Counted from the first letter of the stretch, positions 8,280-55,212 are shown. The stretch is 64,000 nt of DNA from Clostridia bacterium (GCA_017537175.1 JAFYLH010000014.1:33513-97512), one strand, 5' to 3'. Program-made: numbers and translations. The notes: generated from the letters alone by a model not told the origin.

Positions 8280-8309
8280 AAGAGCTCCGTCCTTATATAT
8301 AGTTAATTA

Positions 8310-8338: not shown

Positions 8339-8348
8339 TGATTTGCAG

Positions 8349-8377: not shown

Positions 8378-8404
8378 ATAGATATAAAATCATCGGAGTT
8401 ATTT

Positions 8405-26681: not shown

Positions 26682-26705
26682 AAAAGCACCCGAAGGTGCT
26701 TTTTT
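26680..26705. terminator. Bidirectional terminator
   Basis: AAAAAAGCACC-cgaa-GGTGCTTTTTT between convergent stops. Confidence 0.85.
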
Positions 26706-28132
26706 CAGTTATTTAATTCCTGTTCTACTACTTCCTTGAGGTCATCATATTCCAAGGCTTTTACAAAGCTTTCAACAACCTCGCCGTTTTCGTTAAGTAT
26801 TACAGTATACGGATAGGTGCCTCTACCACCCTGATCGTTGTAGTATGCTTCGTTTTCAAAGTCAACTGCAAATATCATATCTGTTTCGGGATAGTACTCG
26901 GAGATATATGCGGGTGCAGTATCCGAAACCATATATGTATGAACGGCAATTACCGTAACGCTGTCCTTATAATCTGTTGCGATCTGATCAAAATAGGGCA
27001 GCTCCTTGACACAGGGACCGCACCAGGTTCCCCAGAAGTTAACAATGGTGATCTTTCCTGTCGCCTCGGGGGTGATGACATCCCCAGAGACGCCGTCTCC
27101 TGTGAGAATACTAAGCTGTGTTCCTTCAATTTGATTTGAATTTTTTTCAGGACCGTCAAAATAATAGAAAACAGCGGCACCTATAAGAAGAACTGACAAT
27201 AATACGGCAATCACAGCTTTGGTTACGATTTTGGCTGTTTTGTTTTTTGTGTCAGATACAGGTGTGTTACTTTTGTTCCTTGCGCATTTCCAATTAATAG
27301 CCTTTGTGGGACATACACCGATACACTCGCCGCAACCTATACATTCTGCATCACCGATCTTTTTGATATCCAACTTACAATGCTCAATGCATTTGTTACA
27401 GTATGTACATTTGTTGGTGTCGACCTTTACTCCGAATACAGAAATGCGGTTAAACAGGCCGTATAAAGCGCCCAGGGGACATACAAATCTGCAGAAGATC
27501 CTGAAGATAAAGACCGATCCTACAATGGTAGATACAAGCAGCAGGAACTTCCATGTAAACAGAGGTCCTATCATTTCAAGATAATGTGCATTTGCGGGAT
27601 TGGAAAGAAGTCCTATACCGCCCTCAAGTGTACCTGCGGGGCATATAAATTTACAAAAGGCAGGGAAAACCGTGTCCTTGGACAAATACATTATAGGGAC
27701 AATGATCACAAAGAACGCCAATACAAAATACTTTAAATAGGACAGTATTCTCGTAAAGGCAGATTTCTTGATCTTTGGTGTTTTTATCTTATACAAAAGC
27801 TCCTGTATCAATCCAAACGGACATACCCATCCGCATATCATTCTTCCGAAAAGTATGCAATACAGAAGTAATATTCCGCCAATATAGAACAATGTATTTT
27901 TGTTTCCTGAGCTTATTGCACCCTGCAGAGAGCCGATGGGACAGGCCGTTACCGCACCCGGGCAGGAATAACAGTTAAGACCCGGCATACATACAAGCTT
28001 TGTGTTTCCCTGATATATTTTGCCGGTATAAAAGCCTTGAAAATTAACATTGAATAATAGGGCTGCGTACAGCTGAACAAGTCTGCGCTTTGTCGGTCTC
28101 AGCCCCCATATTTTAAGTAAAAAGTTCTTCAT
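26705..28132 (-). CDS. Membrane 4Fe-4S-binding protein (NapH/RdxA-like) fused to a TlpA-like redoxin domain
   Basis: CxxxCP motifs (CGWVCP, CKFICP, CRFVCP), NCYSCP, ferredoxin motifs CTYCNKCIEHC and CIGCGECIGVCP, an extra TM helix, then NFWGTWCGPCVKELP..YPYT. Confidence 0.85.
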   Translation of the reverse strand: MKNFLLKIWGLRPTKRRLVQLYAALLFNVNFQGFYTGKIYQGNTKLVCMPGLNCYSCPGAVTACPIGSLQGAISSGNKNTLFYIGGILLLYCILFGRMICGWVCPFGLIQELLYKIKTPKIKKSAFTRILSYLKYFVLAFFVIIVPIMYLSKDTVFPAFCKFICPAGTLEGGIGLLSNPANAHYLEMIGPLFTWKFLLLVSTIVGSVFIFRIFCRFVCPLGALYGLFNRISVFGVKVDTNKCTYCNKCIEHCKLDIKKIGDAECIGCGECIGVCPTKAINWKCARNKSNTPVSDTKNKTAKIVTKAVIAVLLSVLLIGAAVFYYFDGPEKNSNQIEGTQLSILTGDGVSGDVITPEATGKITIVNFWGTWCGPCVKELPYFDQIATDYKDSVTVIAVHTYMVSDTAPAYISEYYPETDMIFAVDFENEAYYNDQGGRGTYPYTVILNENGEVVESFVKALEYDDLKEVVEQELNN

Positions 28133-28139
28133 ATAAAAA

Positions 28140-28904
28140 TCAACCTAATCCAATACATTCGTTACAAATATTGATCGCTTTGGTAAGAATATCGGCTGTA
28201 CCGTTATTTAACGCACCGATGATTATGGCGATACAAGCAAGTACGGCAAAATTGCCGATCAACATATATTTCAAAATATTAGTATGCTTTGCATTTTCAT
28301 TACCGCATCGAGCCTCCTTGGGCACCTTAGGTAAAGCTTTGATGAGCTCCGACTCCGCCTTCATGCTGCGATTGTTGGTATAGTTTACGATCAATGAGTA
28401 AATAAAAGCAGGAATGATCAAAATCACAAAATAAATAAATAGCAAAAGTATCTTGAGATTATCATTGGGGGCAAATGTATAAAATTGAGGCTGGAATATA
28501 ATATATACAAATGCGATAAATGCATCAATCGAAAGTAAAATACTGATCGATTTTTGTGTATACCGAAATCTTTGTTTCTTTGCAATAGCAATTTTGGTTT
28601 CCTCGGAAGCGGCACTTAGATCCTTGACCTTATAAAGTGCTGCGAGTATATAGGAATAGTTCTTTTTAGGATTCTTTTTAACTTGCTCCGGAGCAAATAA
28701 TGATATCACTGCGGTTATGACTGTCAAAGCCGAGGTGAAATATACCGGTATTGATATATAGCCAAATACTGTTGAGATGGCTTCCGGGGTGTATGTGTGA
28801 TTGTTTCCGTAATATATAAACAGGGCACCAGCTGCAAAGCATATGCCTGTCAGCACAATACAGACAGCAAGCATGATTTTTAATGTAATTAATACATATT
28901 TCAC
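28140..28904 (-). CDS. Membrane protein with C-terminal CxxC motif (CD1871A-like KAINICNECIGLG)
   Basis: About 5 TM segments; the terminal motif is typical of small CxxC proteins encoded beside this 4Fe-4S family; GTG start with GGAGG RBS. Confidence 0.7.
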   Translation of the reverse strand: MKYVLITLKIMLAVCIVLTGICFAAGALFIYYGNNHTYTPEAISTVFGYISIPVYFTSALTVITAVISLFAPEQVKKNPKKNYSYILAALYKVKDLSAASEETKIAIAKKQRFRYTQKSISILLSIDAFIAFVYIIFQPQFYTFAPNDNLKILLLFIYFVILIIPAFIYSLIVNYTNNRSMKAESELIKALPKVPKEARCGNENAKHTNILKYMLIGNFAVLACIAIIIGALNNGTADILTKAINICNECIGLG

Positions 28905-28938
28905 CGAAAATGGACCTCCATTCTGTTTTCACTGTGAT

Positions 28939-28967
28939 ATTATAACATAATCATTTTGAATTGTAAA
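28939..28967 (-). promoter_or_regulatory. Sigma-A promoter, leftward (redox pair)
   Basis: Minus strand TTTACA, 17 bp, TATAAT with TG extension. Confidence 0.7.
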
Positions 28968-29016
28968 TATTGTTGAAATAATATTATAAAAATAAATTAA
29001 GTTATGCCGAATTATA

Positions 29017-29045
29017 TTGCAATTTATATATATATGTAGTAAAAT
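29017..29045 (+). promoter_or_regulatory. Sigma-A promoter, rightward (protease-Opp operon)
   Basis: TTGCAA, 17 bp, TAAAAT. Confidence 0.65.
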
Positions 29046-29112
29046 AAACTGAATATGTCTTCGTGTAGCTAAAATCGACATATTTAAGAAAACAAGGAGA
29101 TTCTGCAAATCA

Positions 29113-32100
29113 ATGAAGAACACACAAATCGCAAAGACTATCAAGAGTATGCTTGCATACCTTATGGTGCTTACCTTCCTTTTGGGAAGTATGGCAGTGC
29201 CTGTCGCAAACGCGGCAGCTCCTGATTATACTGCATCGTATATTCAGAAGCTTGACGGTGTTAAGGTAGACTATTCTCAATATCTTGATAATTCCGTAAT
29301 GTTCGAGCTGCCCGAGGGTATCGGTGATGACGAAGAGATTTCTGTTATCGTTACTCTTGACAGAGTTGACATTATGGAAGCTTACGAAAATTCTAACAAA
29401 ACAATGAGCTTTACCGATTACGCAACGGTAAGTGACGACGCATCTGAGATCAGAAGAGCAAATGCTACAGACAAGGCGCAGTTCCTTGCAGACCTTGATG
29501 AGCTTGGTGTTGCCTATACCACAGGCGAGGATTATGATACCGTACTCAGCGGATTTGAGCTTTTGATAAAAGCCGGTGACTTTAAAAAGACCGCTTCAAA
29601 TCTCAGTGCCGGTATGGACATCATCGTTGGTGAGGTATATGAGGCTCAGAAGACAGAGCTGGTTGAAAACGAGGTTAATGTATTTGAAACCGGTATCTTT
29701 GACAGCTCTGATTCGGGATATGACGGAACAGGAATGGTGGTTGCCGTTCTTGATACAGGTCTTGACTATAATCATACTGCATTTTCTACCGATAACTTTA
29801 CATCCGAGACTCTTGGTCTTACATACGAGGATGTAGCAAAGGTAGTTGACGAGACAAAGGCAAGCGAGCTGCTTGACGGTCTTACCGCGCAGGATGTTTA
29901 CATCAGCGAAAAGGTTCCTTACGGTTTTGACTATGCTGACAGTGACCCCGATCCCTATTCAACACACAATAACCACGGTACACATGTATCGGGTATTATT
30001 GTCGGTAACGACGATACCATCCGCGGTGTTGCTCCCAACGCACAGCTTGTATCTATGAAGATATTCTCTGATGTTGTGGATACATCAAGAACAGCATGGA
30101 TACTTGCGGCTCTTGAGGACTGTGTCGTTCTTGGCGTTGATGTTATCAATATGTCTATCGGTACAGCCTGCGGCTTCAGTCGTGAGACTGACGAAGAGTC
30201 AGTAGGCGGTATTTACGATAAGATCCGTGATGCCGGTATTAATATGATCGTGGCGGCATCTAACAGCTATAGCTCTGCATACGGCTCCGAGGCCAACGGT
30301 AACCTCGGTCTTACATCCAACCCCGATACAGGAACAGTCGGATCCCCCTCTACATATGACGGTGTAATGTCTGTTGCTTCTATCAGCGGTACCGAAACTC
30401 CTTATCTTAAATATGGTGATACAATTATATATTTTACCGAGTCCTCCGATGCTTCAGGCGAGGAAAACGATTTCTTTAAAACATTACTTGGCGAAAAGGA
30501 TTCTGTAAAGATAGATTATGTTCGTATACCCGGTGTGGGCAGATCAGCCGACTATACCGGTGTGAATGTAAAGGGAAAGATCGCTTTGGTCCGCAGAGGT
30601 CAGAATACCTTTGAAGAAAAAGCGATGATTGCACAGGAGCAGGGTGCTGCCGGTATTATCATTTATAACAATGTATCCGGTGACATAAAAATGAATGTGG
30701 GCGAGGCAGAGCTTGCTGCCTGCTCGATCTCACAGAACGACGGTGAGCTCCTTGCAAAGAAGGATAAGGGAACTCTTAAGATCTCAAAGAAGCAGACCTC
30801 AGGTCCCTTTATCTCAGACTTCTCCTCCTGGGGTCCCAGCCCCAACCTCGAGCTCAAGCCCGAGATCACCGCTCACGGCGGTAGTATTCTTTCCGCTATA
30901 ACAGGCGGCAGCTATGACCGTATTTCCGGTACATCTATGGCTTGTCCCAACCTTGCGGGTGTTGTGGTTCTCCTCAGACAGTATGTTGTTGAGAACTTCC
31001 CCGAAATTGCGGATGATAACCAGAAGATCAACATAATGGTTAACTCCCTTATGATGAGTACCGCTGATATTGCTCTGGGTAAAAACGGCTTGCCTTACTC
31101 TGTAAGAAAGCAGGGTGCAGGTCTTGCCAATCTTACCAGCTCCATCAAGACTCCCGCTACCATCACAACAACCGATGCAGACGGTAATGTTATGGACAAG
31201 GCAAAGATTCAGCTTGGTGATGACCCCGAGCGTACCGGTGAATATGAGTTTAGCTTCACCGTACACAATTTTGGTAAGAAGAAGGTTACCTACAGCCTTG
31301 GTGCTATCGTTATGACCGAGGGTGTAAGCGAAACCAAGACCAATTCCGGTAAGACTACCATTACTGAGGAGTCCTACATACTTGAGGGTGCAAAATTTGA
31401 GATCGTCAAGGTTGAGGGCGGCAAAAAGAGCGGTAAGAATGTTAAGGTCGGTGCAGGTAAGGAAGCAACCGTTACCGCAAGGATCACACTTACTAAGGAA
31501 AACAAAAAGTATCTTAACGATTCCTTCGAAAACGGTATGTATGTTGAGGGCTTTATCACCCTCAAGGCAAAGTCCGGCACAAAGATAGATCTTAATGTTC
31601 CTTACCTTGCTTTCTACGGTGACTGGACCGAAGCTCCCATGTTTGACCTCACATATTATGATACCAACGCAGACGAGCTTGATGACGGTATCGATGTTGA
31701 GGACAAGGTAATGGCAGATGCATATGCCTCCAGACCCATAGGCGGCGTTAGTGAGGACTATGTAAGCTATCTTGGTTCATATTACTTCCTCCAGGATCCC
31801 GAGGATATTGCGATCTCCGCACAGAAGGAGCATGTTTCGCTTTCAAATCAGGAGGGAACAATACATTCACTGCGTTATGTTTGGGCAGGTATGCTTCGTA
31901 ACGCAGCAAAGATCAACATAAGCATAACAGATTCTGTTACCGGTGATGTTATTTTCGAAAAGGAAGAAACTGATATCCGTAAGTCCTACAGTGACGGCGG
32001 TGCAATGATCTATCCTGCGAATGTTGAGCTTGAATTTGATGCTATTGACTATAACCTTGAGAACAACAGCGAGTATACCGTAAGACTTGAGGGATATCTC

Positions 32101-35100
32101 GATTACGGTGATGGCGGCGTTGAGACCAACAAGAATAATGTTTTTGAATTTCCTCTTGTTGCCGATTTCGAGGCTCCTACCATTACCAATGTAGAATATA
32201 CATATAAATATGATAAGACATTAGAAAAGAACAGACTTTACGCCGATGTATATATCTACGATAATCACTATACAATGTCTTCACAGCTCGGATATGTAAC
32301 CGAGGGTAAGGATGAAAACGACAATGTTATTCCCGAAATGAAGGCATTTGAGCAGTATATGACCCCCGTATACTCCGAGAGAAACAGCACAACAAAGGTT
32401 ACTTACGAGCTTACAGATTACATATACGATATCAAAAATTACGCAACCAAAAAGAACACCTTTGTTATAACCGCATATGACTATGCGCTTAATTTCGCAA
32501 CATACGAGTTTGGTCTGCCCGATAACTTTACCGAGTTTGTATTTGATGGACTTGACGAGGGTCTCACTCTCAGTCCCAATGAGGTTTATACTCTCACTCC
32601 CAGCGTTACCCCCGGTGACCAATGGGCAGAGCTTATAGAATTCTCCTCCTCCAAGCCCAGTGTTGTAAGAGTTGTTAACAACAAGCTTGTTGCTGTAGCA
32701 AGCGGTACTGCAACAATTAAGGCACAGGATCCCAATACCAACGAGAGTATTACATTTAAGGTAACCGTTCTCAAAAAGGACGACGAGGGCTATAAGCGCT
32801 TTGATAAGCCTGTCGCTGATGTCTTTACTCTTGACGGATTTAATACGATCAAGGCTTATTATATATTAGAAAATGAAGATAAGGACATAGGTGACACCGG
32901 AAGTAAGAATCAGTTTGAAGGTAAATATAACCTTGCGATGTATCCTTCTGAGTCTGTTTTACTTCAGTATTCACTTGATTCTTATTTCCCCAAGGATACC
33001 AAGGTAGCTTTTGAAAGCAGTAACGAAGAGATCGTAAAGGTTGATGCAAGCGGATGTGTTACCGCTGTTGAAGAAGGCTTTGCATCTGTAACCGTTAAGG
33101 TGCTTATGGATAACGAAAGTACCTACTATTCCGAGACCGTATCTGTAGAGGTCAAGGATCCCTATGTTACCACAGGTCCCAGCCTTACACATTATTACGG
33201 TAACGGCGGTCTGGTTGACATTCCCAAGAAGCTTTCTCTTACCGAGATCGGCTCCTTTGCGTTCTCCAACTTCAATTATGTTATGAAGACCGAGGCTGAG
33301 CTTGCTTTGGATGACAGAGAAAAGTCCAAGCAGTGGTTTATCGGTGACAGCACTATTACAAAGGTAGTTATCCCCGAGGGTGTTGAAAAGATCAACTCCT
33401 ATGCCTTTGCAAACCTCACAGCACTTGAGGAGGTAGTATTCCCCTCAACTCTTGAGCATATTGATTACGGTGCATTCTATAACTGCACATCTCTTAAGAA
33501 GATCACATTCAGCTCTGATAACAATCTTAAGGTTATTAACCAGAACTGCTTTGAGAACTGTAATATAAGTGAGCTGGACCTCAGCGCAGTTTGTGTTATC
33601 TCTAACTATGCATTTGCGGGAAACCAGAATCTTAAGAAGGTTGTTCTCGGTGATACACTTATTTCTGTAGGTCAGTATGCATTTGCAGGATGTAAGAAGC
33701 TTTCTGATATAACTATCGAATCCGAAAAGGTTAAGTACGGTGCTTACGCTTTTACAGGATGTGCTTCTCTCAAGGAATTCTATGTTAACTCTTCGGTTCT
33801 TCCTGAGGGTATGTTCTATGAGTGTAAGGAAATGACCAAGGTTACCATCGGTCCCGATGTTGATGATATCGGGGTATTTGCATTCAGAGAAACACAGATC
33901 AAGGAATTTGAGATCCATAAGAAGAATAAGACCTTCAAGGTTCAGACAGCGGATCATATTCTTACCACCGACTCCAAGACCCTGGTTGCGGTTTCTCCTG
34001 TAATTAAAGGTGAGTTTACTGCTGCAACCATTAAAGCCGATAAGATCAATACTATTGCAAAGGGTGCGTTCTCCCATAACCAGAGCATTACCTCTGTAAC
34101 ACTTGAAAAGGTTACAAAAATTGGGGACTACGGCCTTGCTTCCAATAAAAATCTTAAAACCGTAAAGCTCGGTGAGCTTAAAGAAATAGGCAATTATGCT
34201 TTCTTTGAGGCTTCTATTTCCGAGATGCCTGCATTTACCGAAAAGACTAAGATCGGTAAATATGCATTCTCCTTCAGCAAGATAACATCTGTTACGATTC
34301 CTGACGGATTTAAGATCGAAGAGGGAACCTTCAGCGAATGCTCCGCTCTTGAGACGGTCGTTATAGGTGACGATGTTACAATAGGCGATCATGCATTCAG
34401 TACCGACAAGGATACGGCATTTAAGGTTCTCACTGGTGGCGGTTCTACCGGCGATGGTGAGGATGCTGTAGTAGAAAGAAAGTATTTCTATTATGAATTT
34501 TCTTCACCTCTTAAGAATCTTACAATAGGTAAGGATGCCAAGATCGGAGACTATGCATTCAACAACGCAGCAAGTCTTGAGACAGTAACTCTTGGCGAGG
34601 GTGCCGAGATCGGTAAGATGAGCTTCTACAATACATCAAGCTTAAAGAACATCGATCTTTCAAAGGTTAAGTCCTTTGGCGACTATGCTATATCCGGTGA
34701 TGTGTATTATGCTTGTCTTGATGACAGTATGACCGTACCCGATGTTACCTCCGAGGGTATGTACCGTTATACATATCACGGTCCTCTGATCGAGTCTGCT
34801 GATATCTCCTCCGCAAAGAGTATTGGTGAGTATTCATTCTCGTACTGCAGAAATCTTGTTGATATCAAGCTTGGTGATAAGATAACCGAGATCCCCAAAT
34901 ATGCCTTCGCAGGATGTGCTGCACTCAAGAATATCAATCTTACCAATGTAGAGAAGATCGATGAATACGCATTTATGGAATGCGGTCTTGAAAAAATAGA
35001 TATTTCCAAGTGTGAAAGCGTTGGTGATTATGGCTTTGTTTCTAACCGCCAGCTTGCAACTGTTGTACTTTGCGAAAAGGGAACAGATATAGGTGAGGGT

Positions 35101-36345: not shown

Positions 36346-37336
36346 AAATGTATTAAAAGTACTTTTGATTACAGTATTTGCTGTTAGCTGTTGTCTTCTT
36401 ATTGCAGGATGCTCTGATCTGAGTACTCCTTATGATATCAATAACAAAGATGGTTATACCGTTAGCGTCAAGTTTGACGCTAACGGAGGTACCTTTGGCG
36501 ATAATGCATCTTTGTCGGTAATGGTCGATTCCTTTGATCCCACCGTTTCTACAGAGATCGCGCTTCTTTCCCCTGATGATCCCGCAAGAGGTGATACAAA
36601 CAGCTTTGTTGCGCAGAAAAGCGAGAGCTTTCTTGTGGGATGGTACAGGGATCGTATAGATAACGGTGACGGAACCTTTAGTTACTCTGGTAAATGGGAT
36701 TTTGAAAATGACAGACTTACCGTTGATCCCGAAGGGTCCTATAGTGCCGATGAACCTGTAATGACTCTGTATGCGGCATGGCAGCCCCGTTTTAAGGTTG
36801 AGTTTTATGACCTTGATTCCTCAGAGCTGCTTGATACCTATATATTTGATCCCAACTACGGTTTAGAGATCAATATACCCTTTGTCGACGAGAAAAAGGG
36901 TGAATATAAAATGTATAAGTTCCCCGAAAAGTCGGGATATACATTCAAAAATGTATATATAGACGAGGCTGCTACTCAGGCTATTGATACCACAACATAT
37001 CTCCACCCCGGTGTTATCGATTATGATAACGCTGTCGTTTCCGGTGAAACGTTAAAGCTGTATGTCGAGTGGACCCAAGGCGAATGGTATTATATTTATG
37101 ACGCCAAGCAGCTTAAAAAGCATGCTGATACAGATTCCAATCTTGTAATCTGCGCCGACCTTGACCTTGAAGGTAAGGGTTGGCCTGAGGATCTGCTTGA
37201 TAAAGACTTCAGCGGTACTGTAATAGGAAACGGACATACTGTTTCAAATTTTGATATTGACAGTATTTACAATATCGAAGAATACGGAAATATGACCGAT
37301 ATTAAATTCATACTCTCGGATAACAGCGACAGCTGA
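36317..37336 (+). CDS. Lipoprotein with InlB-B/Flg_new-like repeats
   Basis: Lipobox LIAGC; VKFDANGGTF..FLVGWY..TLYAAW and PEKSGYTF..LYVEW repeats; overlaps the protease stop. Confidence 0.7.
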   Translation: MQIVMNLLNKNVLKVLLITVFAVSCCLLIAGCSDLSTPYDINNKDGYTVSVKFDANGGTFGDNASLSVMVDSFDPTVSTEIALLSPDDPARGDTNSFVAQKSESFLVGWYRDRIDNGDGTFSYSGKWDFENDRLTVDPEGSYSADEPVMTLYAAWQPRFKVEFYDLDSSELLDTYIFDPNYGLEINIPFVDEKKGEYKMYKFPEKSGYTFKNVYIDEAATQAIDTTTYLHPGVIDYDNAVVSGETLKLYVEWTQGEWYYIYDAKQLKKHADTDSNLVICADLDLEGKGWPEDLLDKDFSGTVIGNGHTVSNFDIDSIYNIEEYGNMTDIKFILSDNSDS

Positions 37337-37415
37337 GATCAGATGTATATTTGAAGGTTATATCTTGATATTATTTAAAGTTAATAAATAAATGAAAATA
37401 AAAGGAGCAAACAAA

Positions 37416-39980: not shown

Positions 39981-39994
39981 TATCGGAGAATACA

Positions 39995-40987: not shown

Positions 40988-40998
40988 GGAGGCAGACG

Positions 40999-42039: not shown

Positions 42040-42042
42040 ATA

Positions 42043-44182: not shown

Positions 44183-44439
44183 TGAGCGATAAGAAAAACA
44201 AAAAGAAAAAAGAAAAAATAACCTATATTGACGATGGCAGAACGATTTCCGACATGTCGGGTGTCAAAAGCAATCTTGATTGGACCCGCAAGGGAACAAC
44301 CTCAAGCTTTGGTGATATCTGGAGAACATATTGGAGCGCTGTAAGAATGATGATCAAGCCGATGCTTGTCACAATTGCATTTTTGTGCGTTGCTTTTTTG
44401 ATCGTTACTTTTATATTCTGGCTGATGTTGATAAAATAA
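44182..44439 (+). CDS. Small membrane protein of unknown function
   Basis: Basic N-terminus, YIDDGRTISDM motif, C-terminal TM; TAATG coupling to oppF. Confidence 0.65.
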   Translation: MSDKKNKKKKEKITYIDDGRTISDMSGVKSNLDWTRKGTTSSFGDIWRTYWSAVRMMIKPMLVTIAFLCVAFLIVTFIFWLMLIK

Positions 44440-44457
44440 AAACTATTAGGAGAACAC

Positions 44458-47274: not shown

Positions 47275-47288
47275 TCGGAGATAATAAT

Positions 47289-48515
47289 ATGATGACTATG
47301 AGACGCATTACAGCAGTGGCCCTTGCAGTGATCTGCCTGGCCACACTGCTGGTCGCTTGTAGCGGTGGCGACAAAGAATATACCGTAACCGTTAAGGATT
47401 ACCTTGGAAATCCCTATACCGGTATTGTAGTTGAGTTCAAGCAGGACGGCAATAAGGTCGCAATGCAGAGCTGCAATGAAGAGGGTATTGCAAAAAAGAC
47501 CCTTGCATCCGGTAAATATGATATTGAGCTTAAATTTAGTGATGATGAAGCCTCATATCACTATGACAAGGATATCGTCGCTACCTCCCGTGACAATAAT
47601 ATAGATGTTATTCTTTCAAGAGTTGTTTCGGGCGAGCCCAAATCTTATTTTGCGGTAGACGGTGATTATGATATCTATACTGTTGCGGCAGGCTGTACCT
47701 ATCTTGAGCTTTCGGAGGGCAAAAACTATGTTATCTTTGTTCCTACCGAAGCAGGAACCTACGAGTTTTCTGTTGTCGACGGTGCTGATGCTGCAATAGG
47801 ATACTACGGTGCACCTCATTATATTCAGGAAATTAATAACGCAGAGGTTGTTGATAACAAGTTTACTATTTCTGTTACTCAGGGTATGATCGGTACAACC
47901 GAGGGCGGTACCTCCTCCTATGTTATAGGCTTGGATAAGGGTGACGCTGATAACTGTGTTCTCGGTATCGAGAGAATCGGTGATCCTGCTTGGTCTATAG
48001 AGGATGAGCCTTGGGATGTCTACACCGAAACAGTAGAGCTTAATCAGTACACTCTTCCCGAGGGCTATAGCCTTGGTGAGTTTGATCTGACCGAAAGCTC
48101 TGATAAATATAATCTTGTATTCAATGATAATGACGGATTCTATCATCTTGACAGCACAGACGGTCCTCTTGTGCTTGTAAGACTTGCCGAGGATACTGAT
48201 TATATTGCTTGCTTTGCTACAATGCTTGACCGTTCAGGCGTAACAAAGTATTACTTTGATGAAAACGATGAGTTTGTTAAGAAGGAAAGCTATTCCGAGT
48301 GTCTCTTGAAGTATATTGAATATGTTGACGAGGATGAGGGTGTATATCCTCTTACCGAAGACCTTAAGTACATTATTCAGTCAAGAGGCGAATATGTCGG
48401 CTGGTGGGATATTGACAGCAATGGTTATATATTTAAGGATTTAAACGGCAATAAGATCAAGGATATCAACCCTGATATCGCTTGGCTTATGATGTGCTGT
48501 TATATTGAGAAATAA
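47289..48515 (+). CDS. Lipoprotein: Ig-like + beta-sandwich + unrecognised GxYH..GP domain
   Basis: Lipobox LVAC; DGFYHLDSTDGPLVLV..GVYPLTEDL..AWLMMCCY. Confidence 0.75.
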   Translation: MMTMRRITAVALAVICLATLLVACSGGDKEYTVTVKDYLGNPYTGIVVEFKQDGNKVAMQSCNEEGIAKKTLASGKYDIELKFSDDEASYHYDKDIVATSRDNNIDVILSRVVSGEPKSYFAVDGDYDIYTVAAGCTYLELSEGKNYVIFVPTEAGTYEFSVVDGADAAIGYYGAPHYIQEINNAEVVDNKFTISVTQGMIGTTEGGTSSYVIGLDKGDADNCVLGIERIGDPAWSIEDEPWDVYTETVELNQYTLPEGYSLGEFDLTESSDKYNLVFNDNDGFYHLDSTDGPLVLVRLAEDTDYIACFATMLDRSGVTKYYFDENDEFVKKESYSECLLKYIEYVDEDEGVYPLTEDLKYIIQSRGEYVGWWDIDSNGYIFKDLNGNKIKDINPDIAWLMMCCYIEK

Positions 48516-48523
48516 GGTATTAT

Positions 48524-49378
48524 ATGATAAAAAGAATTATCAATTTATTTCTTGTGTTTTCTTTACTTTTCGGTGTCGCAGGCTGCACATTGCAGTCTGC
48601 ATCCGAAAGGGAATACAAAATTACCGTTATTACCGAAGGCGGAATGCCTTTTAGCTCCGTGCCTGTTATTGTATATAGCGGAACGGATAAGAATGATCTT
48701 GTATGGAGAGCTGAAACCGATTCTCAAGGTAGTATAACCTTTACAGCAAAAGTATCTGACGATTATATTGCTGTGGTCGAAGATATACCTCAAGGTTATG
48801 ACAATAAGGAATATTATTCTGTTGAATCGTATGAGACAGTAATTACCCCTGAGATTCTTCTTGAAGAGAAGGTAGACCTTACGGGTATCAGCTATGACTT
48901 AGGAGACATTATCCACGATTTCACAGTATGTGATGCCGAGGGTAATGAGCATAAACTTTCCGATATCTTAAAGGATAAGAAGATGGTAATGCTCAATTTC
49001 TGGTATCTTAACTGTATGCCGTGTAAGATGGAATTTCCTTATCTTGAAGAAGCATATCAGCAATACAATGACAAACTTGAGGTTATTGCGTTGAATCCCG
49101 TAGACGGCACCAATGCAACCGTATCGGCATTCGCTGATGAAATGGGACTCAGCTTTCCTATGTCTGTGTGCGACCCCATATGGGAGAGTGCTATGCAGTT
49201 AAGCGCTTATCCCACTACCGTGATCATAGACCGTTACGGTATGATCGGTATGATCCATAAAGGATACATTACAGAGACAGATACCTTCAATGACATTTTT
49301 GAATATTTCACCTCTGACGGTTATGTACAGTCTACTGTAAAAAATATAAGTGATATTTCACAGAAAGAAGGAGAATAA
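48524..49378 (+). CDS. Lipoprotein: Ig-like + TlpA-like redoxin (CMPC)
   Basis: Lipobox VAGC; NFWYLNCMPCKMEFP..AYPTTVIIDRYG. Confidence 0.82.
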   Translation: MIKRIINLFLVFSLLFGVAGCTLQSASEREYKITVITEGGMPFSSVPVIVYSGTDKNDLVWRAETDSQGSITFTAKVSDDYIAVVEDIPQGYDNKEYYSVESYETVITPEILLEEKVDLTGISYDLGDIIHDFTVCDAEGNEHKLSDILKDKKMVMLNFWYLNCMPCKMEFPYLEEAYQQYNDKLEVIALNPVDGTNATVSAFADEMGLSFPMSVCDPIWESAMQLSAYPTTVIIDRYGMIGMIHKGYITETDTFNDIFEYFTSDGYVQSTVKNISDISQKEGE

Positions 49379-49379
49379 A

Positions 49380-49796
49380 ATGAAAACATTCAACAAGCTT
49401 TTCTGCATCGTTCTTGCACTTTGCTTTATGCTCAGCTTCGCTGCATGTACTGCAAATGTTGTAGAGAATAATGAAGAAGACCCTACCCCTAACAATGATG
49501 TTGCAGAATCAGAAAACAATGCAGCTGATGATACCGCATCTGCAGGCTTTAAAGTAACCGTTGTAGACGAAAGCGGTGCACCTGTTGAAGGTGTAATGCT
49601 TCAGATCTGTAAGGAGAACTGTATTCCTGCCTCAACCGATGCTGAGGGCATTGCGACCTTTAATATTGAGGCAAGTGCTGAGCATAAGCTTTCTGTTCTC
49701 ACACTCCCCGAGGGTTATGAGTATAACGGAGAAGCCGAGATCTATCTTGAAGACGGTATGACCGAAACAACCGTTACTGTAACAAAGGTGGCATAA
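49380..49796 (+). CDS. Small lipoprotein, single Ig/prealbumin-like domain with CxxxC
   Basis: Lipobox FAAC; acidic linker; FKVTVVDESGAPVEGVMLQICKENCIPASTDAEG; ATG 49380 follows AAGGAG. Confidence 0.72.
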   Translation: MKTFNKLFCIVLALCFMLSFAACTANVVENNEEDPTPNNDVAESENNAADDTASAGFKVTVVDESGAPVEGVMLQICKENCIPASTDAEGIATFNIEASAEHKLSVLTLPEGYEYNGEAEIYLEDGMTETTVTVTKVA

Positions 49797-49798
49797 TT

Positions 49799-50764
49799 AT
49801 GAAGAACACCGTAAATAAAAAGGCGTTCAGCCTTGGCGGCATAGGGATCATACTTATTACTGCACTTATGCTTTCCTTAGCTCTCGGACTTAACGGCTGT
49901 AAGGCACCTAAGCAAACTGTCGAAGGCGATGAGACAGCTGATGTAAGCGGTGAAGCGGTGGTAGAAACAGCTGATATCACTGAAGAAGCAGTAGACCAAA
50001 CCGAGGAACTTCCCGCTGATACATCCGATGATACTACCGAAGCTCCTGTTACTCAGGACACCACAGAGGCTGATGTTACAACCAATGTAACTAATCCCGG
50101 CGGTACTGTTATAACCGGTGCAGGCAGTGCATCCGAGCCTTATCTCGAGATTCCCAATGAGGATATGACTGTAACTACAGTTAGTATTCCCGCAAGATCT
50201 GAGCTTTATTACGATATATACCGTGTTGGCGGTATGTACCTCACCGTTAACGATCCTGACGCGTATATTATTTGTGATAACCTCCAGTATGACGCTGTAA
50301 ACGGTCAGATATATATGCAGGTTCCTAACGCTCTTGCCAGTGATTCTATTAGTTTCCGTGTTGGTAACTACAGTAATACAGCCAAGTCATTTACTTTGAT
50401 TTTCACTAGTCCTCTTGGCAGCTATCAGAACCCCGCTGTAGTAGACGGCTTGTCCGAGGGCTTTAATGTATCGTTGGAAGAAGGTAATGAGACCGGCTTC
50501 TACTTCAAGCACTATGCTACGCAGAACGGTGTTATCCGTTTTTATATGCAGGCTTCTGTAGACAGCATATTCATTGTAACTAACAACAGAAACTCTGCTC
50601 AGAGAACCTCTGATTCTGACGCTGCAACTGATGCTAACGGTAATGAATATGTTGAGATTGAGGTTAATCAGGGTGATGAGCTTCTCATCAATGTTGGTGC
50701 TATGCCCAACAAGAGAGGTAAATATCCTGCTGTTGAAATATACTGGAATGGTATATATAATTAA
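49799..50764 (+). CDS. Lipoprotein with T/E/D-rich stalk and two beta-sandwich repeats
   Basis: Lipobox LNGC; low-complexity linker; GSASEPY and GSYQNPA repeat starts. Confidence 0.7.
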   Translation: MKNTVNKKAFSLGGIGIILITALMLSLALGLNGCKAPKQTVEGDETADVSGEAVVETADITEEAVDQTEELPADTSDDTTEAPVTQDTTEADVTTNVTNPGGTVITGAGSASEPYLEIPNEDMTVTTVSIPARSELYYDIYRVGGMYLTVNDPDAYIICDNLQYDAVNGQIYMQVPNALASDSISFRVGNYSNTAKSFTLIFTSPLGSYQNPAVVDGLSEGFNVSLEEGNETGFYFKHYATQNGVIRFYMQASVDSIFIVTNNRNSAQRTSDSDAATDANGNEYVEIEVNQGDELLINVGAMPNKRGKYPAVEIYWNGIYN

Positions 50765-50782
50765 TTAAAAAGGAGTATTCAT

Positions 50783-53047
50783 ATGAAAAAAATAACAAGA
50801 AACATACTCAGCGTAATACTGATTGTTTCTGTACTTACTCTCCCTTTGACGTCATTTGCTGATGATCCTATGCTCGGTGCTTATGATAATCCTTATTTTT
50901 TAAGTACTGCAAGCACTCACTTTACTGTTAATGTGGATGCTGAGTCCGAGGTATGGGTTAAGGTTGATGATTGTATAGGCTCCACACTTAATGTTATTAA
51001 GGCTACCACTGATGATTATATGATAATGTATTGCAGACAGCCTCATGTGCCTGAAACTACATCAGGGAAAAACACTCTTTCCTTAGTAATGGTTAGTGGT
51101 GCCGATATGTTTAATATTTATAATCCCGGTACTACTTCCGTTGAGCTTCAGCTTGAGCTTATCGGAGGCAGCGGAATTATTGAGCAGGGAACTGTTGAAA
51201 ATCCTGAGCTTGTTACAATGTCTACCAATATGTTTGGTGGTGTTGGTGCATCGTTAACTAAGGAGCTTGCAGCCTCAAATGAAGGTTATTATTATAAAAC
51301 TATAGCTCCTGCCGATGGTATTATAACTGTTTCAATAAGTGCGTATGATGCAGATTACAACAATGTTGGTTGGACATACTTTGTAAATAACGAAACAAAG
51401 GGTGTCTACGGTGATACACATTGGTCTGATGAAGAAGAGCCCGTTTACTATGAATCTGTAGAAGTAAGTAAGGATGATGTTGTTATAGCATTTGCTGCAA
51501 CATACGATCCTGATAACCGGTGGACCAACCCCGCAGGCACAGTATCTGTTAACTTTAACTTTGATGCTGTAGGTTCCAGCAACAACCCTGAAACCATCGA
51601 AGCGGGTGATCATACAGTTTCTGTTGAGGCAAGCTCCCAGGGTCATCACTATATATGGACTGCTACAGAGGCGGGTACTGCTACAGTTATCATGTCTGAG
51701 GGTAATGCTAACGGTTGGCAGTATAGTGTTAATGTAGAACGTGTCGATGAAAGCTATGTTTATGGCGATACTCATTGGTGTAACGATGATCCTGTAGTTT
51801 CGAGTGAATCCTTTGAGGTTGTAGCCGGAGACAGCTTAAGGATTTTTGTTAACACATACAATCCCAACAATGAATTTGTTGCTCCTGCAGGTAACGTTAA
51901 CTGGACACTTTCCTTTACTGCAGGTGAAGGTGATGGTGGCAACACAACACCCGAACCCGAACCCGAACCTGAGCCTGAACCCGAGCCCGATGTTCCTGCA
52001 AACACATACGAAAACAGTGATGTAGCTATTACTCTTGGCACCAAAGATTATCCTCTTCTTGAAGGTTACGACTATACAATATTTGCATTTGAGCCTTCTG
52101 ATATCGGTAAGTATACATTTACTTCCACAAATGCACTTATCGGTATTGTAAGCTATAACGGTATGTGGGTAAGTACAGAGCCTACTGCTGAAATAATTAA
52201 TTCCAATACTGCATACTGGGAATGTAACGGTGTTGGTCAGGCTATATGGCTTGCTGCAAAGTATAATCCCGTTACAAGAGCTATCGACGATGGCTCAAGT
52301 GTTTCAATTACCGTAACCCGCGAGGATCTTGTTATTGACACAATTCCTTGGACTACATATGTTAATACTCACAAGCCTGTTCCGTTTACATTTAACGGTG
52401 ATGCAGATGCTCTTGAACCTGTAGAGGTATTTGACGATTACGTTAATGTGCCTGTGAAGGGTAGTGATGGTTATTATCACCTTGATTCTGCTACAGGTCC
52501 TATTCTTTACGTTGACCTTGACGATGCTATGATGAATCTTGTTGATGCAACAAGTTACGGTCAGGTTAAGGATATCATAATGGACGGTGACAAGATCGTT
52601 TCCAAGATCGATTATAACTCCGCTCTTATAGAATATTCTGAGTGTGCAGATGCTACACTCTGCCTCTATCCCCTTACCGACGACCTTATCGCTATATACA
52701 AGGGTACAGGTCATTTCCAGACTTGGTACGGTGAAGATGGTTTCCTTGGTACCACAACCGATGACGCTTATCTCTTTGCTTGTTATTTCATCAATGACGG
52801 CAGCGTAAATAACAACAATAATAACAATAACGGTGGCAACAAGGTACCCACAGGAGGTCAGTCTTTTGGCAGCGGTACCACTACAAACGGCAAGCCCATA
52901 GGTTCCGGCAATACTGTAACCGGCACTCAGGTTGGAAAGCCTGTTGTTGGTGCAGCGCAGACCTTCGACCCTATTGCTATTAATGTAGCGGCTTTGGTTA
53001 TCTCCGGTCTTGGTATTGCTGTTACAACCCGTAAGAAGAGATCCTGA
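50783..53047 (+). CDS. Secreted, probably wall-anchored protein: beta-sandwich repeats, PE linker, GxYH..GP domain, sortase-like C-terminus
   Basis: Signal peptide ending SFA-D; duplicated YGDTHW..PAG unit; DGYYHLDSATGP..LYPLTDDL..YLFACYF; AAQTFD + hydrophobic segment + RKKRS. Confidence 0.75.
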   Translation: MKKITRNILSVILIVSVLTLPLTSFADDPMLGAYDNPYFLSTASTHFTVNVDAESEVWVKVDDCIGSTLNVIKATTDDYMIMYCRQPHVPETTSGKNTLSLVMVSGADMFNIYNPGTTSVELQLELIGGSGIIEQGTVENPELVTMSTNMFGGVGASLTKELAASNEGYYYKTIAPADGIITVSISAYDADYNNVGWTYFVNNETKGVYGDTHWSDEEEPVYYESVEVSKDDVVIAFAATYDPDNRWTNPAGTVSVNFNFDAVGSSNNPETIEAGDHTVSVEASSQGHHYIWTATEAGTATVIMSEGNANGWQYSVNVERVDESYVYGDTHWCNDDPVVSSESFEVVAGDSLRIFVNTYNPNNEFVAPAGNVNWTLSFTAGEGDGGNTTPEPEPEPEPEPEPDVPANTYENSDVAITLGTKDYPLLEGYDYTIFAFEPSDIGKYTFTSTNALIGIVSYNGMWVSTEPTAEIINSNTAYWECNGVGQAIWLAAKYNPVTRAIDDGSSVSITVTREDLVIDTIPWTTYVNTHKPVPFTFNGDADALEPVEVFDDYVNVPVKGSDGYYHLDSATGPILYVDLDDAMMNLVDATSYGQVKDIIMDGDKIVSKIDYNSALIEYSECADATLCLYPLTDDLIAIYKGTGHFQTWYGEDGFLGTTTDDAYLFACYFINDGSVNNNNNNNNGGNKVPTGGQSFGSGTTTNGKPIGSGNTVTGTQVGKPVVGAAQTFDPIAINVAALVISGLGIAVTTRKKRS
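51950..51988 (+). repeat. Hexanucleotide repeat encoding a (PE)n linker
   Basis: CCCGAA/CCTGAG units encode PEPEPEPEPEPEP. Confidence 0.85.
52808..52831 (+). repeat. AAY repeat encoding poly-Asn (8)
   Basis: aat aac aac aat aat aac aat aac. Confidence 0.85.
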
Positions 53048-53071
53048 TTATTTGATGTAATAAAGCTATTA

Positions 53072-53106
53072 ATATAAAAGGTGTATATTTTATACACCTT
53101 TTATAT
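53072..53106 (+). terminator. 16-bp hairpin, probable terminator of the protease-Opp operon
   Basis: ATATAAAAGGTGTATA-ttt-TATACACCTTTTATAT. Confidence 0.7.
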
Positions 53107-53136
53107 AAATTTTATTGATATTTTTTCAAAAAACTA

Positions 53137-53165
53137 TTTACATTTCATTAACTGTATAGTATACT
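53137..53165 (+). promoter_or_regulatory. Sigma-A promoter
   Basis: TTTACA, 17 bp, TATACT. Confidence 0.6.
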
Positions 53166-53195
53166 ATTGTTATAAATCATTTGAGGAGGTTTATT

Positions 53196-53795
53196 ATGGA
53201 ACTTGCAGCTTGGGCTATTGGAGCAGTAATCGCTTTAATTATGTGTATACCTTTATTCTTAACTTACATTGCAGTTTATGTACTTGAGGGTATTGCTTTC
53301 ACTAAGCTATCTAAGATTAAGCCTGTTAAAAATATGTGTCTCGTATGGATTCCTTCGTATGTTGAGTATATTGGTAAAAAATATATTATGTCTCAATTTT
53401 CGGATGAAGCCGATTACCATATTTTCGGTAGATCTATTGTTTTCAAAAACAGACTTACACCCTTCTGGATATACTTTGTTTTACAGATCGTTATATTGGC
53501 TATGAGCTTGATCGTATCTTTGTTAGGCGCGATACCGATTCTTGGAATCATATTATTTGTTATATATCTTGTAATATCTGTTCCTTCTATGGTTGTTCTC
53601 ACTATCATAGAATATGGATATTTCCGTGATATGCTTAATTATTTCCGACCCGGAAATACCGGCAATGTTACAACAGCTGTTTTGGTTACAATTGCTAACA
53701 TCGTAACTAATAGACTTGTTGGTGCTATTTATCTCATAGTTCTTTCTAAAAAGGCATCCAATGTTGTTGTTCTTGATGCCGAAGAGGAAATTTAA
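53196..53795 (+). CDS. Hypothetical integral membrane protein (about 4 TM)
   Basis: ATG 53196 follows GAGGAGG; hydrophobic segments; visibly AT-rich. Confidence 0.7.
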   Translation: MELAAWAIGAVIALIMCIPLFLTYIAVYVLEGIAFTKLSKIKPVKNMCLVWIPSYVEYIGKKYIMSQFSDEADYHIFGRSIVFKNRLTPFWIYFVLQIVILAMSLIVSLLGAIPILGIILFVIYLVISVPSMVVLTIIEYGYFRDMLNYFRPGNTGNVTTAVLVTIANIVTNRLVGAIYLIVLSKKASNVVVLDAEEEI

Positions 53796-53824
53796 TAGTA
53801 TATAATTGATCTTATTTATAATGC

Positions 53825-53860
53825 AAGGTGTATGGGATATTCCATACACCTTATTATTTT
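53825..53860 (+). terminator. Hairpin/terminator after the membrane protein gene
   Basis: AAGGTGTATGG-gatatt-CCATACACCTT followed by a T-rich tail. Confidence 0.7.
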
Positions 53861-53871
53861 TATATTTAATC

Positions 53872-53900
53872 TTGAAATTACTACAAAAATGTTGTATGAT
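53872..53900 (+). promoter_or_regulatory. Sigma-A promoter
   Basis: TTGAAA, 17 bp, TATGAT. Confidence 0.6.
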
Positions 53901-53936
53901 ATTATAAATAAGTAAAATATTCAAGGAGTAATACCG

Positions 53937-55178
53937 ATGGAAAAAAAGAAGGTTATATCTATAATCATAATTTGTGTTCTCGCGGCATTTATTGCGGGAT
54001 CTGTATTATACTTTACTGTTTTTAAACAGGATGATACAAGTAAGTATGATATATTAAACGATGTAGCTACCAAGGAGTACAGTATCAATATCAAGACGGC
54101 AGGCAATATGCTGTTGTCGGATATCGATGTATTTGTATACTTTGATGATACCTACGATAAGCTTATCGATTACAAAAAGACGGATAAGAACGGTAATGCT
54201 GTATTTACCATTCCGCAGTACGATAAGTATGTTGTTGTAGTTTCCGGAATTCCTGAGGGCTATGATGTTGCCGATCACTATTCCTTTAACGGTGATATGA
54301 CCGAAATAACAGTTACATCAAAGCTTATTGAAGGAAAGAATATCTATGATGGCTCATTTGCTATAGGCAATGTAATGTACGATTGGTCTCTTAATACAAG
54401 CGACGGTAAAGAGATCAGCATTTCTGAACTTCTTTCGGATAAGAAGATGCTTGTCATCGATTTTTGGTATAAAGAAGCCCACAGTATTGAGCAGTTAAAT
54501 CTTCTCAACGATCTTTACAACCAATACAGTGACAGCGTAGAGGTATTAGCTTTAAATCCTGTAAATACCGACGAAGAAATATCAGGCTTTAAAGTTGAAA
54601 ACTCTCTTAATAAGTTTATGGAAAACAATACTGAAGCTATTGATACCGACAATGATACATTAAACATTATAGACGAGACTTCTTTGAATATTCATATGGC
54701 AAGCTGCTCTCGTAGAATATCCGCATTATTCGGTGTTTCAAGATGTCCCTCGATCGTGATCATTGACAGATACGGAGTTGTATCGATGATCGAGGTCGGC
54801 ACTGTTTACTCCGCTGATCAGTTAACCAAGGTATTTGATCACTATACAGCCGAGGAATATACTCAGAAAATATACCGTAACGGTATAACCGATTTTGTTT
54901 CTCAAGCTATGCCTTCGCCCAAGGTACTTGAGGTTGTTGCAAAGGATAAGGATAATGTAAAGATACCCGGTGTCGAAATTAAGTACACCTCGGGTGAGAT
55001 TACCTATACAGCAATTACCGACGAAGCCGGTGTAGCAAGATTTGATGTCACCACCAAATTAAATGATACCCTTACCGTCCTTAACTGTCCTTCGGAATAT
55101 AAGTACTCAGGTGCAGCCGAGATCATTCTTTCCGATGATATGTTTACTTATAATATCCTGTTTACAAAAGCACAGTAA
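53937..55178 (+). CDS. Membrane-anchored redoxin-fold protein lacking CxxC, flanked by two Ig-like domains
   Basis: N-terminal TM; clear paralog of the 44458 N-terminal third, but DFWYKEAHSIEQL replaces NFWYTTCSWCVEEF; CPSIVIIDRYG retained. Confidence 0.75.
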   Translation: MEKKKVISIIIICVLAAFIAGSVLYFTVFKQDDTSKYDILNDVATKEYSINIKTAGNMLLSDIDVFVYFDDTYDKLIDYKKTDKNGNAVFTIPQYDKYVVVVSGIPEGYDVADHYSFNGDMTEITVTSKLIEGKNIYDGSFAIGNVMYDWSLNTSDGKEISISELLSDKKMLVIDFWYKEAHSIEQLNLLNDLYNQYSDSVEVLALNPVNTDEEISGFKVENSLNKFMENNTEAIDTDNDTLNIIDETSLNIHMASCSRRISALFGVSRCPSIVIIDRYGVVSMIEVGTVYSADQLTKVFDHYTAEEYTQKIYRNGITDFVSQAMPSPKVLEVVAKDKDNVKIPGVEIKYTSGEITYTAITDEAGVARFDVTTKLNDTLTVLNCPSEYKYSGAAEIILSDDMFTYNILFTKAQ

Positions 55179-55183
55179 AAACC

Positions 55184-55212
55184 AAAGCCGAGGATAAAAC
55201 CTCGGCTTTAAT
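55184..55212. terminator. Bidirectional terminator
   Basis: AAAGCCGAGG-ataaaa-CCTCGGCTTT between convergent genes. Confidence 0.78.

Follow-up and report, generated by a model that had tools for sequence, protein, structure and literature searches.

A protease, a peptide importer and a candidate Fe-S-based thiol-reducing module encoded together in a surface locus of gut Clostridia

The proteolytic system of lactic acid bacteria is made of a cell-envelope proteinase (PrtP or CEP), PrtM and the oligopeptide importer Opp, and the polysaccharide utilization loci (PULs) of Bacteroidota are built on SusC/D with surface binding lipoproteins. On the redox side, the membrane-tethered extracellular CxxC proteins of the TlpA/ResA kind (ResA, TlpA, StoA, Etrx) need a membrane electron donor, CcdA or DsbD; DipZ has its own CcdA-like membrane domain. 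In NosR a polyferredoxin module is linked to a redox domain outside the cytoplasm, and in the mau cluster MauN is encoded together with MauD, a TlpA-like protein, for an enzyme subunit rich in disulfides. Here we describe a locus that recalls all of these systems. It is found in a stretch of 64,000 nucleotides from a Clostridia bacterium (GCA_017537175.1, JAFYLH010000014.1:33513-97512), which we call the window, where the block at 26705-55178 (about 28 kb) encodes a subtilase with leucine-rich repeats (LRRs), an Opp importer, a series of modular lipoproteins and a membrane pair formed by a CD1871A-family protein and an Fe-S/thioredoxin fusion. Comparison among genomes shows that these four parts co-occur genome by genome. 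We read the locus, with a probability of roughly 0.55, as a conserved surface system of gut Clostridia, patchy in its distribution, that combines proteolysis and peptide import with its own extracytoplasmic thiol-reducing pathway, the redox arm serving the proteolytic machinery within one coupled system. The features of the locus, with protein lengths in amino acids (aa) and TM standing for transmembrane, are the following.

26680-26705, bidirectional: terminator-like hairpin that closes the Fe-S/thioredoxin gene and the upstream SipL gene
26705-28132, minus strand: Fe-S/thioredoxin fusion, 475 aa (Pfam Fer4_5, Fer4, Redoxin, Thioredoxin)
28140-28904, minus strand: CD1871A-family membrane protein, 254 aa, five TM helices (NF040920)
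28905-29112, between the divergent units: intergenic region with promoter-like sites facing both
29113-36345, plus strand: cell-envelope-type S8 subtilase, 2410 aa (Peptidase_S8, PA, fn3_5, Big_2, LRR_5)
36317-37336, plus strand: lipoprotein, 339 aa, with lipobox; its gene overlaps the protease gene by 29 nucleotides
37392-39980, plus strand: OppA lipoprotein, 862 aa, SBP_bac_5 (family 5), with lipobox
39995-40987, plus strand: OppB permease (Pfam BPD_transp_1)
40999-42039, plus strand: OppC permease (Pfam BPD_transp_1)
42043-43188, plus strand: OppD ATPase with oligo_HPY C-terminal domain
43145-44182, plus strand: OppF ATPase with oligo_HPY C-terminal domain
44182-44439, plus strand: 85-aa protein with one C-terminal TM helix, kept after OppF in congeners
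44458-47274, plus strand: lipoprotein, 938 aa, with Ig-like domain, TlpA/ResA-like redoxin (CSWC), beta-sandwich and shared C-terminal domain
47289-48515, plus strand: lipoprotein, 408 aa, with Ig-like domain, beta-sandwich and shared C-terminal domain, ending in ...WLMMCCYIEK
48524-49378, plus strand: lipoprotein, 284 aa, with Ig-like domain and TlpA/ResA-like redoxin (CMPC)
49350-49796, plus strand: lipoprotein, 148 aa, Ig-like only
49799-50764, plus strand: lipoprotein, 321 aa, no family
50783-53047, plus strand: exported protein, 754 aa, with signal peptide and C-terminal TM anchor
53072-53106, plus strand: terminator-like hairpin at the end of the 14-gene operon
53937-55178, plus strand: membrane-anchored pseudo-redoxin, 413 aa, paralog of the redoxin lipoproteins, followed by a terminator (55184-55209)

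The proteolytic half has the same main components as that of lactic acid bacteria, i.e., a surface-anchored S8 subtilase with PA insert and fn3_5 domain that would feed an Opp importer with a lipoprotein OppA. The protease scored 142.9 bits against PF00082 and has the subtilase triad in the correct order, D216 (VLDTG), H289 (HGTH) and S608 (GTSMA), with the PA insert (PF02225) at 479-547, fn3_5 (PF06280) at 708-832 and LRR_5 in 8 matched stretches of the BspA type. Its best PDB matches were C5a peptidase, SpyCEP and CEP A (E between 1e-55 and 1e-61). The importer set is complete for the Opp/Dpp type, with a family-5 binding protein, two permeases and two ATPases, all five identified by Pfam; residues 214-483 of the long OppA (about 270) matched no family. 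Here, however, protease and importer are found in one operon, BspA LRRs are added to the protease, and redoxin lipoproteins and the Fe-S/thioredoxin module are added to the whole. An LPxTG anchor is typical of streptococcal and lactococcal CEPs, whereas no LPx[TSA]G sortase motif was found in this protease, whose C-terminus has a TM helix (2370-2388) with a KKKR tail. No PrsA-like PrtM was seen, and the protein encoded after the protease is instead a lipoprotein that may be of a repeat type. Four relatives that lack the Fe-S fusion (G019, G027, G032 and G034) also have long binding proteins of family 5 (716-814 aa), which are more distant.

For the redox half the comparison is less direct. The lipoproteins with redoxin domains correspond to the membrane-tethered extracellular CxxC proteins that depend on CcdA or DsbD, but the place of a Cys-only transporter-like protein would here be taken by the candidate donor, a membrane protein with Fe-S clusters and a CXXC partner. 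The fusion shares with NapH, MauN and NosR the Fer4_5 membrane domain, the CX3CP motifs and two [4Fe-4S] motifs, and differs from them in the extra invariant Cys motifs in predicted outer loops, the fused thioredoxin and the obligate CD1871A partner. The top fold match of the 938-aa lipoprotein was the C-terminal region of DipZ from M. tuberculosis (PDB 2hyx and 5cyy), a TlpA-like thioredoxin followed by a beta-sandwich, although the TM-score by query was just 0.14 and a further 470 residues have no counterpart in DipZ. The initial annotation had presented the locus as a Gram-positive protein counterpart of a PUL. The view of one conserved, co-inherited unit has stood; the PUL comparison is to be taken as an analogy only, based on one locus that encodes Ig-like surface binding lipoproteins, a surface hydrolase and an importer. 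Here the cell is Gram-positive, the target would be protein and there is a redox arm, and no SusC, SusD or TonB-type family appeared among the locus proteins scanned with Pfam. The annotation also knew of no described system with this combination, and neither did we find any description of the redox cassette, of CD1871A or of a comparable protein-utilization locus in the full-text literature outside subscription journals and supplements. Taken as a whole, the locus looks like a variation on known kinds of system, and if any part of it turns out to be new in kind, it would be the candidate Fe-S-based reductase.

The main evidence for one system is the distribution of its parts. We have analyzed a sample of 41 genomes of the same genus, family or order (G000 being the genome of the window). 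The full-length Fe-S/thioredoxin fusion was found in seven, G000, G002, G006, G007, G009, G012 and G031. The same seven carried the 938-aa lipoprotein (a fragment at a contig end in G002, and 34% identity over residues 57-760 in G012), a match over residues 1-1200 of the protease (with partial, distant S8 matches in four other genomes) and the long OppA (a fragment in G002 and two pieces at 45% in G012). No full-length copy of any of the four was found in the remaining 34 genomes. Among the 9 other species of the genus the fusion was confined to carriers of the operon. Synteny with the window was preserved in G006, G007, G009 and G002, and in G031, which belongs to another family, the lipoprotein genes have shifted upstream of the Fe-S pair. 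In an evenly sampled set of 301 genomes of the order the fusion was detected in seven; six of these have an ortholog of the protease (at least 67% identity), adjoining the pair where contigs allow, and the seventh, G150, is a genome 72% complete. Eleven genomes of this set with only distant CEPs had no Fe-S module. The initial annotation had made its proposal depend, among other things, on the redox genes being found together with the protease and Opp genes in other genomes, and this is what both samples gave.

A wider search among GTDB species returned at least 598 stretches with relatives of the fusion, from which the best 80 loci were analyzed, the neighbors being counted with tblastn. Among these best 80, the protease was located within 10 kb in 28, a separate redoxin lipoprotein in 31 and a full-length homolog of the 938-aa protein in 17. 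When restricted to the 36 loci with at least 8 kb on both sides, a protease or a redoxin lipoprotein was nearby in 26. At least three gene orders hold the parts together. In five genomes the pair is unlinked, beside SecA, IF-2 or another giant protein, and all five keep the 938-aa lipoprotein (44-54%) and the protease (56-68%), with the two genes adjacent to each other in three of them. As far as sequences can tell, the co-occurrence of the parts exceeds chance. The parts travel together across many gut bacteria and therefore probably work as one system.

Some individual loci of this search deserve mention. In four of them (L046, L050, L052 and one more) the CD1871A/Fe-S-thioredoxin pair is located directly downstream of SecA; in L059 it comes after an HtrA-like trypsin-PDZ lipoprotein and in L079 there is an S41 peptidase nearby. 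In L030 the divergent position usual for the protease is occupied by a gene (1748-8752, minus strand) for a 2334-aa protein with an N-terminal TM segment and no Pfam family, and the protease ortholog of that genome is on a different contig. Finally, L069 comes from a contig labelled Alloprevotella (Bacteroidota), with a Clostridia-type pair nested among Bacillota rows that may reflect mis-binning or transfer.

The fusion has the build of a NapH-like membrane polyferredoxin with two [4Fe-4S] clusters, one more TM helix and a C-terminal thioredoxin domain with CGPC. It failed the cut-offs of the NapH families (76.3 bits for TIGR02163, cut-off 213.05, and 61.2 bits for NF007013, cut-off 234), and its likeness to the NapH type is at the level of the Fer4_5 and 4Fe-4S domains. 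All of its 20 motif Cys were invariant across 51 homologs: C48/C54/C57/C64, the CX3C(P) pairs 100/104, 160/164 and 214/218, the eight cluster Cys and C371/C374. In the 254-aa partner, conservation among 51 homologs is confined to the final 22 or so residues, with a tail ...KAINICxECIGLG in which CxEC is invariant. The last 35 residues matched NF040920 (CD1871A CXXC) at 33.4 and 37.1 bits for a cut-off of 32, the model having 38 positions and the protein 254 residues. In 77 of the 79 loci that could be tested, the tail motif was encoded immediately ahead of the Fe-S gene. The predicted topology puts the Fe-S clusters and the pairs 100/104 and 214/218 inside, and four elements outside: the loop with the first four Cys, the pair 160/164, the thioredoxin domain and the tail of the CD1871A protein.

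We have also modelled the two proteins together. The predicted complex reached an interface score (ipSAE) of 0.67, compared with 0.00 for the best of 3 controls; this value was attained by 58 of 80 solved complexes and by 2 of 110 mismatched pairs, counts that apply here only roughly because the model was made with our own alignments. Contacts agreed between runs by at least 82% and the pLDDT of the partner was at least 74. In the model, the CD1871A tail (residues 233-253) touches residues 54-72, 154-168 and 184-193 of the Fe-S protein, the predicted outer loops with C54/C57/C64 and C160/C164, and the cytoplasmic loop 79-89 of the CD1871A protein touches the cluster region 243-257, contacts that are consistent with the predicted topology. 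The model thus supports the prediction that both proteins bind each other.

A related module exists without the fused thioredoxin. A shorter Fe-S homolog of about 290 aa was found in 24 further genomes of the order-wide sample, which brings the Fe-S module to 31 of 301, about a tenth. We inspected 6 of these 24 loci, chosen mostly for their long contigs (L105-L110, from G274, G199, G237, G068, G260 and G095). Five carried the same cassette, a TlpA-like lipoprotein, a CD1871A mini-protein of 45-72 aa (one helix and a ...C.EC.G.G tail) and then the Fe-S protein; in the sixth the Fe-S protein was followed by the TlpA-like lipoprotein. Genes that are split in the cassette are fused in the window, which is Rosetta-stone evidence for a link between Fe-S protein and thioredoxin and for a three-part unit. 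Judged from these sequences, the redox module came before its link to the protease and is of more general occurrence.

The distribution of CcdA was examined in the same sample. In G000 (93.45% complete) we found no CcdA/DsbD_TM domain (PF02683) at E values up to 0.1, in a search whose control recovered PF02683 in 11 of 14 known genomes. CcdA was present in none of the 7 fusion genomes, in 5 of the 31 with an Fe-S module and in 101 of the 270 others, a depletion with a Fisher p of 0.018 that is overstated by kinship. The membrane electron source for the redoxins that the initial annotation had called for thus has a plausible candidate in the Fe-S/thioredoxin pair, given that no CcdA or DsbD was found in the genome and that the two membrane proteins are predicted to bind. 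G000 also has a small TlpA-like gene (191 aa, contig C13:47754-48335), next to a gene of the biotin/lipoate ligase family and with no CcdA neighbor; its homolog adjoins CcdA in the congeners without the locus G001, G003, G005 and G008.

Most of the remaining products of the locus would be at the cell surface. Lipoproteins with a lipobox start at 36317, 37392, 44458, 47289, 48524, 49350 and 49799. They are modular: an N-terminal Ig-like domain followed by a redoxin unit is common to the 938-, 284- and 413-aa proteins, and a C-terminal domain with the motifs NExDG[YF]YH and W..LC[YC]Y to the 938-, 408- and 754-aa proteins (in the last one at residues 425-649, homologous to the 408-aa lipoprotein). 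The conserved terminal Cys noticed in the initial annotation belongs to this shared domain (C928 in 14 of 16 homologs of the 938-aa protein, C403 in 13 of 14 of the 408-aa one). Another copy of the domain of the 408- and 754-aa proteins is encoded outside the locus (G000, C36:1005-1781), with 39% identity to the 754-aa protein. The W-C-x-x-C signature of the thioredoxin fold is present in the two exported proteins for which CxxC redoxin domains had been reported, those of 938 (CSWC) and 284 aa (CMPC), and in the thioredoxin domain of the fusion (CGPC). Their scores against the ResA subfamily (86-92 bits) were below its cut-off of 170, so we consider the redoxins TlpA/ResA-like at the family level and not ResA equivalogs. 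The further redoxin paralog reported at 53937 is indeed a paralog, with counterparts that likewise close the locus in G006, G007 and G009, but it has lost the CxxC (KE-AHS at the aligned position).

AlphaFold modelled the 938-aa lipoprotein (16 aligned sequences, pLDDT 81) and the 408-aa one (14 aligned sequences, pLDDT 88) as strings of beta-sandwich domains. By Foldseek, the first one matched ResA (TM-score 0.86-0.89 by target) and the thioredoxin-plus-sandwich of DipZ, matches dominated by the thioredoxin domain, and an Atlas search with its C-terminal 619 residues returned only scores below 0.85 and TM-scores below 0.4. The 408-aa lipoprotein gave generic beta-sandwiches only (collagen-binding and PPC domains with TM-scores of about 0.5 by target, and pilins), no enzyme fold among the Foldseek matches, and only chance-level matches in a PDB sequence search. 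The accessory lipoproteins look like binding or scaffold modules, and no second enzyme was found among them. The 339-aa lipoprotein, whose homologs are always next after the protease in related loci, had no Pfam or PDB sequence match; a language-model search likened it to InlB B-repeat/Flg_new proteins (Atlas feature score 0.95-0.96), which is a lead only. It is shorter than the ten homologs listed (436-495 aa), missing their C-terminal extension of about 100 residues.

The following scheme would account for these data. The fusion and the CD1871A protein would form a complex in the membrane that cytoplasmic reducing power would enter via the two [4Fe-4S] clusters, to be passed across through two invariant elements, the Cys motifs of the Fe-S protein and the CxEC tail of its CD1871A partner. 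In this way the thioredoxin domain outside, with its CGPC, would be reduced and would recharge the redoxin lipoproteins, which in turn may reduce disulfides at the surface. These disulfides may be those of proteins that the LRRs and binding modules have captured, or those of the protease and the proteins that work with it. The subtilase would then cut and Opp import the peptides, as expected from the known functions of these families. That the substrate proteins are the main target is, in our estimate, a little short of even odds; it is what the fusion of a redoxin to binding-like domains on a long tether, together with the several redoxin paralogs, may point to, and reduction makes disulfide-bonded proteins more digestible. 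We think it rather unlikely that the system's own machinery is the main target. A bolder version is put forward only tentatively. In it, the Fe-S protein would make up a new class of transmembrane thiol reductase together with the thioredoxin and the CXXC tail of CD1871A, relying on Fe-S clusters and on Cys motifs at either face of the membrane where CcdA/DsbD have a Cys-only mechanism. One clade would have recruited it to drive the reduction of disulfides outside the cell, so that disulfide-bonded proteins can be foraged on with the LRR protease and the importer.

The redox arm might also have no business with substrates at all, and serve only to keep the exported proteins of the locus itself (the protease, the shared Cys-bearing domain) reduced and active, or isomerised. 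There is a precedent in the pneumococcal Etrx/CcdA/MsrAB2, which repairs surface proteins. The protease has four Cys (C337, C353, C537 and C611) conserved in 18-20 of 20 orthologs, the last one three residues past the catalytic Ser608; at these four positions the streptococcal CEP in the alignment carries A, N, A and S. Conserved Cys are also found in the shared domain, C602 in 16 of 16 homologs and C427 in 15 of 16, besides the terminal C928, and in other lineages the Fe-S pair is beside genes of secretion or quality control, such as the SecA, HtrA-like and S41 peptidase genes mentioned above. However, a redoxin that shares a long lipoprotein with beta-sandwich and binding-like domains looks tethered for a bound target, and three redoxin paralogs plus a thioredoxin hub are much machinery for few thiols. 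The four protease Cys agree at least equally well with the alternative offered in the initial annotation, that the redox arm matures surface proteins rich in Cys. Its premise of a high Cys content found no support: the locus lipoproteins contain 0.6-1.8% Cys and the genome median is 1.4% (103 predicted lipoproteins, a crude count with a predictor that includes false open reading frames), so that an exceptional Cys content was rejected on that count. We regard a purely self-maintaining role as unlikely, though with a substantial share of the probability.

Two other explanations give up either the coupling or the nutritional role. The Fe-S, CD1871A and thioredoxin genes could be a housekeeping replacement of CcdA (for example for a StoA-like sporulation redoxin) and the protease and Opp an ordinary nutritional set, both linked by chance in one spreading island. 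This would fit with the Fe-S module being widespread without the protease, with the small TlpA-like gene that has no CcdA neighbor in G000 while its homolog has one in congeners without the locus, and with the clustering of the protease-linked rows on the tree described below. It fits badly with a co-occurrence that persists through rearrangement and physical separation, with CxxC redoxin domains encoded within the protease/Opp operon itself and with a fusion that is restricted to operon carriers in the genus, and we find it improbable. More improbable still, to the point that we give it hardly any weight, is that the protease is an adhesin or a surface factor directed at hosts or competitors, like C5a peptidase or SpyCEP, with Opp devoted to peptide sensing or recycling. 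The nearest solved relatives are indeed the streptococcal C5a peptidase, SpyCEP and cell-envelope proteinases, and BspA LRRs and InlB-repeat-like modules are typical of adhesins, but a complete Opp importer is translationally packed in the same operon, the long OppA co-occurs with the protease and the carriers are commensal gut and rumen metagenome-assembled genomes (MAGs).

Several observations weigh against the coupled system that we prefer. The 80 loci analyzed are the best ones and thus biased to close relatives, and among the 36 with enough sequence on both sides, 10 show neither protease nor redoxin lipoprotein. On a quick tree of 51 fusions the S8-linked rows cluster (5 changes compared with 16.6 in shuffles), so the link to the protease may rest on few origins, and the genomes counted are kin. 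A deep clade of 17 rows lacks the protease link, and none of five of its genomes has a protease ortholog or a full 938-aa lipoprotein; these genomes have secreted proteins of 584-667 aa in which a redoxin is combined with a middle region that matched nothing and, in four of the five scanned, with an Ig-like domain. Since the redox module occurs without the protease both in this deep clade and in the thioredoxin-less cassette, the coupling is specific to a clade and not intrinsic. CcdA is present in two of the seven relatives that bear the locus (G002 and G007). The topology was derived from hydropathy and the positive-inside rule alone, and the generic beta-sandwich folds of the accessory lipoproteins leave the system with no substrate that could be named.

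Little is understood at the level of genes about how gut Clostridia break down protein, and a self-contained locus with protease, importer and binding proteins, spreading among species of gut and rumen, would provide a handle on the protein eaters of the gut. Many anaerobic Firmicutes have exported TlpA-like proteins and no CcdA, and for them the three-part Fe-S/CXXC/thioredoxin unit is a concrete candidate for the electron supply. Should substrates indeed be what the redoxins act on, bacteria would have here a system at their surface for unfolding disulfide-bonded proteins ahead of their digestion, which would matter for how mucins, storage proteins of the diet and protease inhibitors are broken down.

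Regarding its setting, the locus is on contig C16 of a 2.32-Mb assembly with 39 contigs (93.45% complete) whose closest relatives are MAGs labelled as gut and rumen Clostridia. The block is flanked by the sporulation genes SipL (25146-26681, plus strand) and SpoIVB (55212-56192, minus strand), and between them there are three units: the minus-strand pair, with 28140-28904 first and 26705-28132 starting 7 bases downstream, the 14-gene plus-strand run at 29113-53047, with intergenic distances between -44 and +55 nucleotides, and downstream two genes, each with its own terminator. Every gene of the divergent pair and of the run is where the initial annotation, which saw no terminator inside the run, had placed it. 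Clear terminators were detected at 26680-26705, 53072-53106, 53825-53852 and 55184-55209; all the terminator-like sites within the run are inside coding sequence, and those in 26000-45900 (13 compared with 14.6 expected from shuffles) showed no excess. The intergenic region has a minus-strand promoter-like site, TTTACA-17-TATAAT, at 28967-28939 (11 of 12 positions matching) and a plus-strand one at 29017-29045. An Rfam scan of the whole window returned no family, an exact-sequence look-up returned no names, and a scan with a CodY-box consensus gave 4 matches at 3 mismatches, the chance level, none of them in the promoter region.

Between the operon and the pseudo-redoxin gene there is a gene (53181-53795) for a 204-aa membrane protein with no family match. 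It has no counterpart in G006 and G009, where the flanking genes are about 170 nucleotides apart, and is probably outside the system. In the congener G008, which lacks the locus (C39:92000-101000), the distance between SipL and SpoIVB is 2.7 kb and three genes are found in the interval, one PaaK-like, one with an ACT domain and one SanA-like. We rejected the idea that the locus was cleanly inserted between the two sporulation genes, because these three genes are on other contigs of G000, and the interval appears to be a variable site rather than the product of a simple insertion or deletion.

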